Assembly (NCBI GenBank): GCA_964538505.1
Contig: CAZIDY010000010.1
Coordinates: forward strand, 10,004 to 74,003
From: an uncultured Limnobacter sp.
Lineage (GTDB): Bacteria; Pseudomonadota; Gammaproteobacteria; Burkholderiales; Burkholderiaceae_E
Direction of reading: 5' to 3'
DNA: 64,000 bases
Shown here: piece by piece, positions 40,004-41,169 of the stretch
Numbering within the stretch: the first letter of the stretch is position 1
Layout: each line of letters starts with the position of its first letter
Translations under genes and position numbers: made by a program
Notes under the pieces: model-generated
Seen by the model: the letters and a program-made list of their open reading frames with translations, nothing else
The model's database searches: none
What the model was told of the DNA's origin: nothing

Positions 40004-40519
40004 TCAGTTCCGTTGCGGGAACTCGAGGGGCCGCAGGCGCGCGGCCACGCGATCGAGCACGCCGTTGACGTACTTGAAGCCGTCGGGCCCGCCGTAGCTC
40101 TTCGCGATCTCGACGGCTTCGTTGAGCACGACGCGATAGGGAATCTCGGGCATCCGCAGCAATTCGAGCGTGGCAAGCATCAGCACCGCGTGCTCGACAG
40201 GGCTGAGCTCGGCGACCCTTCGATCGAGATGCGGTTCGATCTGTGCATCGAGTTCGTCGGCGGCGCGGATCGTGCCGTGCAGCAATGCGTCGAGATGCTC
40301 GTGGTCGGCCTTCTCGAAACCGGGCGTTTCCTCGAGATGCGCGTGGATGACGCCGGCGTCCTCGCGCGCGAGCAGCCACTGGTACAGGCCCTGCAGCGCG
40401 AGCTCGCGCGCGCGGCGCCGTGCGCTCTTCGGCGGCGTTCCGCCGGAGGGCTTGCGCGTAGACCGGGCGCCCGGATCGGGCACCGGCTCGCGCCGCGGCA
40501 GCTTCGCAGCTTCGGTCAT
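40004..40519 (-). CDS. nusB: transcription antitermination factor NusB
   Basis: [15 protein letters not shown]...NAVLR-like helices and FVNGVLD. The start overlaps the ribH stop (ATGA). Confidence 0.9.
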
Positions 40520-41169
40520 CGAGGTGGACTCCGTCGCGAACGCGGAACGGCGTCGTTCTCGTCCTCGTCTACCTGGAGCTCGTCGTCGTCGTCGTCATCA
40601 TCGTCGTCATCGTCGTCATCGTCGTCATCGTCGTCATCGTCGTCGTCGTCGTCGTCGTCGTCGTCGTCGTCGTCGTCATCGTCGTCGTCGTCGTCGTCGC
40701 TGAGCGCAGACAACGAAGACGCGAGGTTCGCCATCTCGACGGCGACGCGCGCGGCCTCGGCGCCCTTCTCCTCGGCCCGCTCCTGTGCCTGCTCGTTGGT
40801 GTCGGTGGTGAGAACCGCATTGGCGACCGGCAGATTGAAATCGAGCGCAACGCGTGCAATGCCCGCGGCGCTCTCGTTCGAGACGATCTCGAAGTGATAG
40901 GTCTCGCCGCGAATGACCGCGCCGACGCCGATCAGCGCATCGAACTCGCCCGATGCCGCCAACTGCTGCAGTGCGACCGGCACCTCGAGCGCACCGGGTA
41001 CGGTGCAGACGAAGATGTCCTCCCCGGCGACGCCGAGCTCGACCAGCTCCTCGAGGCACGCGTTGCGCAGCGTCTCGGACACCGGCTCGTTGAAGCGCGA
41101 CTGCACGATGCCGATGCGAAGGCCGCTGCCGTCGAGATCCGACTGGAACACCTCGATTTCCATGGTCAT
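40516..41169 (-). CDS. ribH: 6,7-dimethyl-8-ribityllumazine synthase with a ~60-residue acidic C-terminal extension (39 consecutive Asp)
   Basis: Core [18 protein letters not shown]...VPGALEVP...[14 protein letters not shown]...GAEAA is canonical RibH. The sequence then continues ...LSALS-D39[21 protein letters not shown]. Start at MTMEIE (cat at 41167..41169), overlapping the ribBA stop. Confidence 0.85.
40582..40698. repeat. 117-bp GAC/GAT (Asp codon) trinucleotide repeat inside ribH
   Basis: Plus strand reads (gtc)n interrupted by atc units from 40582 to 40698, which is 39 codons, all Asp on the minus strand. Confidence 0.95.

Follow-up and report, generated by a model that had tools for sequence, protein, structure and literature searches.

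The question raised by this locus is why the gene of a housekeeping enzyme, 6,7-dimethyl-8-ribityllumazine synthase (lumazine synthase, RibH), should end in a long trinucleotide repeat encoding nothing but aspartate, and what the resulting tail might do for the protein that carries it. The gene lies in a stretch of DNA of 64,000 nucleotides (nt) from an uncultured Limnobacter sp. (assembly GCA_964538505.1, contig CAZIDY010000010.1, positions 10,004 to 74,003), here called the window and numbered from its first letter. As defined by its open reading frame (ORF), translation and Pfam match, ribH occupies 40516..41169 on the minus strand and encodes 217 amino acids (aa), made up of a 157-aa core and a 60-aa tail. 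The reading favored here, with a probability of about 0.6, is that the tail is a disordered polyacidic appendage which has been homogenized to poly-aspartate, is selected for its charge and length, and acts as an external brush on the assembled enzyme.

The preliminary description of this DNA had reported 39 uninterrupted Asp codons, and a codon count gave the same number. The tract (40582..40698, minus strand) comprises 32 GAC and 7 GAT codons specifying RibH residues 158–196, and the uninterrupted run of aspartate or glutamate (D/E) in the protein is 40 residues long. Read in order, the codons are (GAC)6 GAT (GAC)13 GAT (GACGACGAT)x4 GAT (GAC)5; from the codon listing, the longest pure run, (GAC)13, covers tract codons 8–20 (40639..40677, minus strand) and five tandem GACGACGAT units cover tract codons 19–33 (40600..40644, minus strand). 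Tandem Repeats Finder reported the repeat with a period of 3, 40 copies and a score of 191 at 40580..40699. Beyond the tract follows a distal tail of 21 residues (40519..40581, minus strand), recognizable by homology to relatives and built of an ELQV motif, another acidic block and a short basic terminus. The further acidic tail, the extension of about 60 residues and the overlap of the TGA stop with the nusB ATG at 40516 that had also been described are all present in the sequence.

Such a tract is far beyond chance, since the longest homopolymer in any of the six frames elsewhere in the 64-kb window is 7 residues and, among stop-to-stop segments of at least 100 aa, 13 or more D/E in 20 residues occur nowhere but in the RibH tail. 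A halophile-like acidification of the whole proteome was rejected for the window, where no second stretch reaching 13 D/E in 20 residues was found. Two plus-strand ORFs, at 39869..40897 (poly-Ser) and 40170..40703 (poly-Arg), were set aside as frame shadows of the repeat that lie antisense to or overlap real genes, as were the other minus-strand frames across the tract (poly-Thr and poly-Arg). The extreme negative charge foreseen for the protein was borne out by calculation, with a net charge of −58 per subunit, to which the tail contributes −41 in 60 residues and the core −17 (pI, isoelectric point, 4.1). In the AlphaFold model the tail had a per-residue confidence (pLDDT) of about 50 and no secondary structure, and this low model confidence is consistent with an intrinsically disordered tail.

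The core to which the tail is attached proved as ordinary as had been stated. The DMRL_synthase catalytic domain (Pfam PF00885; residues 16–149, 40723..41124, minus strand) was matched at 165.2 bits (cut-off 26.7, E 1e-48) over profile positions 1–137 of 139, and the AlphaFold model of the core was confident, with pLDDT values mostly of 89–97, dips to about 60–77 around residues 81–100 and a last helix ending at residue 161. In Foldseek the core was closest to the Bordetella pertussis enzyme (9yl5/9znh; template-modeling (TM) score 0.93, normalized to the target, and 62% identity), with TM scores of 0.87–0.90 for the Aquifex, Bacillus and Salmonella enzymes. F26 (SRFNE), H92 (GETYHFE), and R131 and K135 in the C-terminal helices form invariant columns in alignment A1 of 49 sequences, and we take these to be catalytic or substrate-binding positions by analogy with the lumazine synthases of Bacillus subtilis and Aquifex aeolicus. 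By profile, fold, core motifs and gene cluster, the protein is thus a housekeeping lumazine synthase with predicted catalytic activity.

The B. pertussis lumazine synthase (9yl5, 9znh and 9znj) belongs to the same family and fold as the window RibH (phmmer E 2e-53), and both have the same betaproteobacterial loop, four residues shorter than in capsid formers. Its deposited chain of 163 residues is tail-less, ending three residues after ...ANLAAALE, so that the window RibH runs about 60 residues past the end of that chain, the native gene end of which may differ. In other Burkholderiales RibH proteins the same C-terminal helix is followed by a D/E extension, but theirs is of mixed composition whereas that of the window is encoded by a near-perfect trinucleotide repeat.

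These extensions in relatives define what is and what is not unusual about the tail. The RibH core alone was used as query in a search of 5.8 billion proteins and the C-termini of the 120 closest clusters were inspected, with tail length counted from the EMANL motif (67 aa for the window tail on that count). The window RibH was 75–93% identical to the 84 nearest of the 120 clusters, the closest relative (P0004, 93% identity) being labelled Zeimonas sp. D/E-rich tails of 34–92 residues (median 53) were found in 83 of the 120 clusters, with a median D/E fraction of 0.54 over the whole stretch from EMANL, neutral linker and basic end included. The tailed clusters shared 75–92% identity with the window RibH and came from Burkholderiaceae-type metagenome genomes, one of them labelled Limnobacter, and the tails of close relatives usually finished in a short basic segment (...RRGxKARH or ...RRRRE). 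The rest of the 120 top matches were mostly Quisquiliibacterium-like proteins of 165 aa with a short acidic end (...PDADDLDD). The RibH core was also used to scan genome loci, where the matches listed were mainly from distant Betaproteobacteria, with locus L003 as the only close one. Among the at least 80 betaproteobacterial loci listed, acidic tails of about 18–33 residues were present in Mycoavidus and in Alcaligenaceae (Advenella, Oligella, Castellaniella, Paenalcaligenes, Brackiella and Bordetella-labelled metagenome genomes), Sutterellaceae-like and Oxalobacter-like RibH had very short tails, and Rhodocyclales, Nitrosomonadales, Thiobacillus and similar taxa had ...LLKAIK-type ends with no acidic tail. 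An acidic tail was found in 3 of the 150 best RibH representatives in a 50% clustering of 15 billion proteins. Because so few representatives carry it and other Betaproteobacteria are tail-less, the long D/E-rich C-terminal tail of RibH is a lineage trait of the Burkholderiales, essentially confined to that order. Two entries among the RibH representatives depart from the usual architecture: P0127, a protein of 238 aa at 58% identity whose D/E/F/Y-rich tail of about 85 residues exceeds that of the window, and P0147, a protein of 1147 aa with three DMRL_synthase-like stretches.

The resemblance is closest in the nearest clade (L003, L093 and L095, with 84–86% DNA identity to the window), in which the tail has the same order as in the window, an acidic run followed by ELQV, a second acidic block, a basic end and a 4-nt overlap with nusB; the distal tail of the window is homologous to ...EELQVEEEDDDE..RRRRE in these loci. 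Across the relatives tail composition is conserved and tail sequence is not. The longest pure D run in the 120 relatives is 11 residues and the longest D/E run 31, against 39 and 40 in the window, and the acidic runs of relatives are broken by Y, F, G, N, R or H, mostly one substitution away from GAY (Asp) codons. A Tyr or Phe stands at a median of 6 residues past the first acidic residue in 71 of the 83 tailed relatives (examples among P0001–P0084 are GGDDDEDDDDDY, AGDDEDEY and SGDEDDDDF), whereas the window tract has no aromatic residue, its allele having lost the early aromatic. The preliminary description had considered a homopolymer and repeat of this length very unusual in bacteria and had proposed that the ribH 3' ends of related strains be compared. 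The comparison supports the first view for the pure 39-Asp run but not for a long acidic tail as such, which relatives share in the form of a D/E mix and with no comparable pure tract. On the sequences compared, only the homopolymeric purity of the window tail is special. A protein search that used the tail itself as query yielded no candidates, apparently since words of low complexity are absent from the index. Acidic-tailed RibH proteins have long been in public databases, and the locus represents not a new system but a homopolymer far outside the range of the 120 relatives.

The substructure of the tract, with its (GAC)13 and (GACGACGAT)5 blocks, points to replication slippage as the source of this purity. 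The (GAC)13 run is the stretch most prone to slippage, and the periodic spacing of the GAT codons suggests that the tract grew both in single triplets and in steps of 9 bp. We infer that a recent homogenizing expansion overwrote an ancestral tail of mixed D/E composition. The reading frame was kept across the repeat, as judged from the sequence downstream of it: from ELQV through the further acidic residues and the basic end to the nusB overlap, it matches that of relatives. With respect to contingency loci, a long near-perfect short tandem repeat of 39 triplets is present within the gene, but on/off or frame switching by unit number would not result from it and only tail length would change, because slippage by a unit of 3 nt (or 9 nt) keeps the frame. 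In-frame variation in tail length, which had been anticipated from the sequence alone, was observed among relatives: in sub-lineages with cores 95–98% identical, in-frame D/E insertions and deletions make tails differ by up to 6 residues (e.g. 52–58, with conserved ends), which indicates that tail length is evolutionarily labile but bounded.

The same repeat could be suspected of being an assembly or sequencing artefact, the true tail being shorter, more mixed, or cut by a stop codon or frameshift. A low-complexity tract of 117 bp is hard for short-read assemblers, the exact window RibH protein is not on record, and no relative has more than 11 consecutive D. The contig of the closest relative in this comparison (L001/L002, position 3478) ends 10 nt past the first Asp codons (…SALSDDGG) in both the European Nucleotide Archive (ENA) and the NCBI records; that end, by the start of the acidic tail, may be a failure of short-read assembly. 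Against an artefact, the frame continues into the homologous ELQV, acidic and basic end and the conserved ATGA overlap, and the tail of 67 aa from EMANL falls within the family range of 34–92. The seven GAT codons are non-trivial and internally periodic, resembling a history of slippage rather than a collapsed repeat, and assemblers mis-size repeats but do not turn TAC or GAG into GAC. An artefactual homopolymer is on this evidence highly improbable. In practical terms, a tract of this kind breaks or endangers short-read assemblies. A scan of metagenome DNA with the ELQV junction GAGCTCCAGGTAGASGAGGA returned 10 loci, none of them RibH, and no sequence from the species of the window was found, the nearest DNA being 84–86% identical.

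How the tail came to lie between the core and the downstream gene can be read from the ribH–nusB junction. In the window the ribH stop (TGA, 40518..40516) and the nusB start (ATG, 40519..40517) share an ATGA overlap at 40516..40519 (minus strand). In tail-less Betaproteobacteria the ribH stop usually also lies in an ATGA overlap with the nusB ATG, or else a few to some tens of nt away, and the gap between the ribH stop and the conserved NusB core is typically 11–23 nt. The suggestion that the tail occupies what is normally the ribH–nusB spacer therefore had to be abandoned, as tail-less relatives normally have no spacer of such size; with the ATGA overlap in place even where the tail is missing, about 180 nt have been inserted net at the 3' end of ribH. 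The stop-start overlap itself is, from these comparisons, ancestral and has been retained at the end of the tail. In tailed Alcaligenaceae 31–52 nt separate the ribH stop from the NusB core downstream of it; this distance, measured to the NusB core and not to the nusB start, points to a short spacer in place of the overlap.

The overlap brings the acidic run close to the translation start of nusB, and invites an explanation in which the run acts on the ribosome and not on the enzyme. Runs of consecutive acidic residues can destabilize the translating ribosome (intrinsic ribosome destabilization, IRD), and on this account the acidic run would be a translational sensor for nusB: coupled initiation of NusB, which serves in ribosome biogenesis and antitermination, would be efficient only from ribosomes surviving the 39-Asp run, whereas abortion inside the tail would leave the RibH core catalytically complete and lower NusB initiation. 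Such a downstream effect of consecutive acidic residues would liken the tract to the MgtL leader and to synthetic runs of 20 Asp or 20 Glu (20D/20E). With a GFP-20D mRNA in the E. coli PURE system more than 50% of the product was aborted peptidyl-tRNA, and in vivo in E. coli the deletion of ybiT or bL31 reduced translation downstream of a mid-ORF 20D/20E run, the ABCF protein YbiT being a factor that relieves IRD at mid-ORF positions (PMC11162784). Runs of this kind are reportedly missing from the proteome of E. coli (PMC11162784). IRD is stronger at low Mg2+, and MgtL uses it for regulation (bioRxiv 10.1101/2021.02.02.429294). In the window, the 40-residue D/E run exceeds the 20D that suffices in E. 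coli systems, 39 residues would fill the 30–40-residue exit tunnel with Asp only, and the run lies 22 codons (21 sense codons and the stop) before the ATGA overlap, with no terminator-like site between ribH and nusB.

Several features of the locus and its relatives nevertheless speak against such a sensor. Coupling and tail do not co-vary, as the ancestral ATGA overlap occurs in tail-less taxa and tailed Alcaligenaceae, with 31–52 nt from stop to NusB core, apparently have a spacer instead. The run starts at residue 158 rather than near the N-terminus, and a preceding chain of at least 30 residues counters IRD, most internal DE-rich motifs then being silent (bioRxiv 10.1101/2021.02.02.429294); natural IRD elements in E. 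coli are short, proline-containing and N-terminal, whereas the window has 39 D after 157 residues at the end of an enzyme gene. The same preprint (bioRxiv 10.1101/2021.02.02.429294) gives bulky residues near the peptidyl-transferase center as a further counter to IRD, and the aromatics in the runs of most relatives fit avoidance of IRD better than its use. The evidence comes from E. coli ribosomes and ABCF factors and not from those of the window organism. Messenger RNA around the tract was no more structured than shuffled controls (minimum free energy −80 kcal/mol versus −87.9 for shuffles, z +1.8), which also leaves unsupported the idea that the nusB start is hidden by mRNA structure. A literature search for a functional link between ribH and nusB returned nothing specific, the sole item being a putative boxA upstream of ribH in Pseudomonas. 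A sensing function of the run in the window is accordingly judged quite unlikely, and the broader proposal, that the RibH tail of the Burkholderiales, at its most extreme in this 39-Asp allele, serves naturally as an IRD element within the operon and tunes NusB, slightly less plausible still. Were it true, synthesis of NusB, an rRNA-antitermination factor, would track Mg2+ and ribosome integrity, with the catalytic core of RibH always completed.

The role of an external polyanionic brush is the likeliest for the tail, and depends on where the tail sits on the assembled enzyme. In capsid-forming lumazine synthases the N- and the C-terminus are both exposed on the outside, and fusions to the C-terminus leave assembly intact (review PMC7369331). 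By analogy, we infer that the tail would face outward on a pentamer or capsid. As to which of these assemblies is formed, natural capsid formers (Aquifex aeolicus, Bacillus subtilis, E. coli/Salmonella) have a G(T/G)K(A/H)GN loop and no tail, the opposite of the window RibH, which in alignments with the Bacillus anthracis and A. aeolicus enzymes is four residues short at this loop. In the A. aeolicus enzyme, residues 129–133, in the loop region between the last two helices, shift conformation at the final docking of pentamers (PMC13376624). The loop motif was found in 0 of 83 betaproteobacterial RibH sequences examined. As tailed and tail-less sequences lack it alike, the idea that the tail is tied to the missing capsid loop was rejected. 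The closest solved homologue, the B. pertussis enzyme, has five chains per entry, which is suggestive only about the assembly state.

In the mechanism proposed for the brush, the tail is translated as part of the enzyme, its usual D/E mix having been turned into 39 Asp by slippage of GAC and GACGACGAT units. Selection would act on tail charge and length and not on sequence, so that slippage would be free to rewrite the tail while frame and acidity are maintained. Each chain would then add a charge of about −41 to a polyanionic brush covering the outside of the pentamer or capsid. This brush would most likely work electrostatically, and could help an abundant oligomer to stay in solution and to avoid nucleic acids, ribosomes and further lumazine synthase particles; it might in addition bind cations or basic partners with low specificity. 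The tail finishes in the ancestral overlap of 4 nt, through which nusB initiation is coupled to the termination of ribH.

Other proteins with comparable charges differ from the window RibH in where the charges lie and what they contact. The engineered variants AaLS-neg and AaLS-13 resemble it in their added negative charge, but their charges reportedly lie on the lumenal face for cargo loading, whereas the window tail would be external. Hfq, with its C-terminal domain, and SSB, with its acidic tip, are similar in carrying a disordered acidic C-terminal appendage on an oligomer; autoregulation of Hfq by its acidic tail is described in PMC5606850. The tails of Hfq and SSB fold back on basic nucleic-acid-binding surfaces, and an autoinhibitory fold-back of this kind is unlikely in RibH, because its core is itself acidic and does not bind nucleic acids.

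A more specific function of the charge has also to be considered, namely that the tail is a store or buffer of divalent cations (Mg2+, Ca2+) with high capacity and low affinity, or an electrostatic docking arm for basic partners, among them perhaps ribosomal proteins, polyamines or the N-terminal extension of the NusB encoded next to it. A net charge of −41 in 60 residues would suit either task, and acidic low-complexity regions have been cited as clusters coordinating Ca, Mg or Zn (PMC6821194). The NusB of the window and of L003, L093 and L095, 171 aa in each, carries an N-terminal extension of 34 residues ahead of the conserved core (codons 1–34, 40418..40519, minus strand; net +5, pI 11.5), a region of only 5–8 residues in most Betaproteobacteria. 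Tails with more acidic residues tended weakly to go with a longer stretch between the ribH stop and the NusB core (Spearman 0.31, Mann–Whitney p 0.046, uncorrected for phylogeny), but long NusB extensions also occur in some tail-less taxa, and co-variation of the RibH tail with a basic NusB extension is weak. No other rib enzyme in the cluster has a net positive charge. The conserved aromatic and ELQV of relatives could be contact points, yet the window allele is without an aromatic residue. On balance, a dedicated module for cations or docking is considered unlikely.

Some of the same observations count against a brush acting through charge alone. The early aromatic of 71 of the 83 relatives and the ELQV motif kept in the nearest clade hint at a sequence-specific role which a pure charge brush leaves unexplained. 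The conserved acidic composition could in part be maintained by the slippage mechanism itself and not by selection. The exact repeat number rests on the assembly, where an error, if any, would most likely concern that number and not the existence of the tail. The enzyme may be a pentamer or a higher assembly, and the loop of capsid formers is absent from its sequence. Lastly, the case for a brush is made on physical grounds and by analogy, as no experiment or paper on tail function was found; a literature search for acidic tails on lumazine synthase returned no paper describing or explaining the tail.

The gene neighborhood of ribH is that of a riboflavin biosynthesis gene cluster, with the order ribD–ribE–ribBA–ribH–nusB–thiL–pgpA–cinA (Pfam), all the following genes being on the minus strand. 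ribD (42910..44058; Pfam RibD_C and deaminase) is followed by ribE (42284..42901; Pfam Lum_binding) and by ribBA (41166..42287; 3,4-dihydroxy-2-butanone 4-phosphate (DHBP) synthase/GTP cyclohydrolase II, Pfam DHBP_synthase and GTP_cyclohydro2). The ribH start (ATG, 41169..41167) lies inside an ATGA overlap with the ribBA stop (41168..41166), and nusB (40004..40519, Pfam NusB at residues 35–159) follows ribH. A GGAG read from the sequence at 40529..40532 (minus strand), within the last ribH codons and 9 nt before the nusB ATG, is a candidate Shine–Dalgarno sequence for nusB, its counterpart in L003 being GAGAGGAGG. No flavin mononucleotide (FMN) riboswitch (RFN element) was found in the window at Rfam gathering thresholds, the region upstream of ribD included, and no sigma-70-like promoter was matched in the rib–nusB region (37500..45500).

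Other repeats and elements were noted elsewhere in the window. A YhgA-like/Transposase_31 (Rpn-type) ORF of 352 aa (15434..16492, minus strand) contains a (QEGR)6(EEGR)2 array, encoded by a 12-bp tandem repeat of 7.9 copies with 96% matches (15603..15720); about 1.9 kb off, a partial paralogue of 242 aa (17370..18098, minus strand) matches its C-terminal half and has a degenerate repeat at 17538..17596. An 18-bp tandem repeat, GGCGCGCCGCTCGGGTCG, is present in about 8 copies with 90–92% matches at 34224..34371, flanked by a DUF2889 gene (33490..34104, minus strand) and a 372-aa ORF (34535..35653, minus strand) that has an HVHLL-type motif and no Pfam match. Two 7-bp arrays were also seen, CCGAGCA in 6.3 copies with 97% matches (35726..35767) and, at 48130..48211, a GAAAGGC-like unit in 8 copies followed by GCGACGA in 3.9 copies with 100% matches. 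In the Rfam analysis, matches to group II intron D1-D4-3 (100 bits) and D1-D4-1 (41 bits) at 23056..23329 (minus strand) probably mark an inserted group II intron, and the "Betaproteobacteria toxic small RNA" family RF02278 was matched at 57725..57787 (minus strand) with 65.7 bits against a gathering score of 50, overlapping a short AGG repeat at 57765..57784; the latter match agrees with the window being of betaproteobacterial origin.

The significance of the tail extends beyond the window. No paper was found on what these comparisons indicate, that throughout a bacterial order an enzyme well studied in itself and as a nanocage scaffold bears a polyanionic disordered tail of 20–90 residues. 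For protein engineering, the tailed enzyme would offer a ready-made, naturally supercharged lumazine synthase with its charges on the outside. For the organism itself, the 39-Asp run is about twice as long as the synthetic 20D that aborts more than 50% of translation in E. coli extracts, and an organism with a natural run of this length must therefore tolerate, counteract or exploit the problem.

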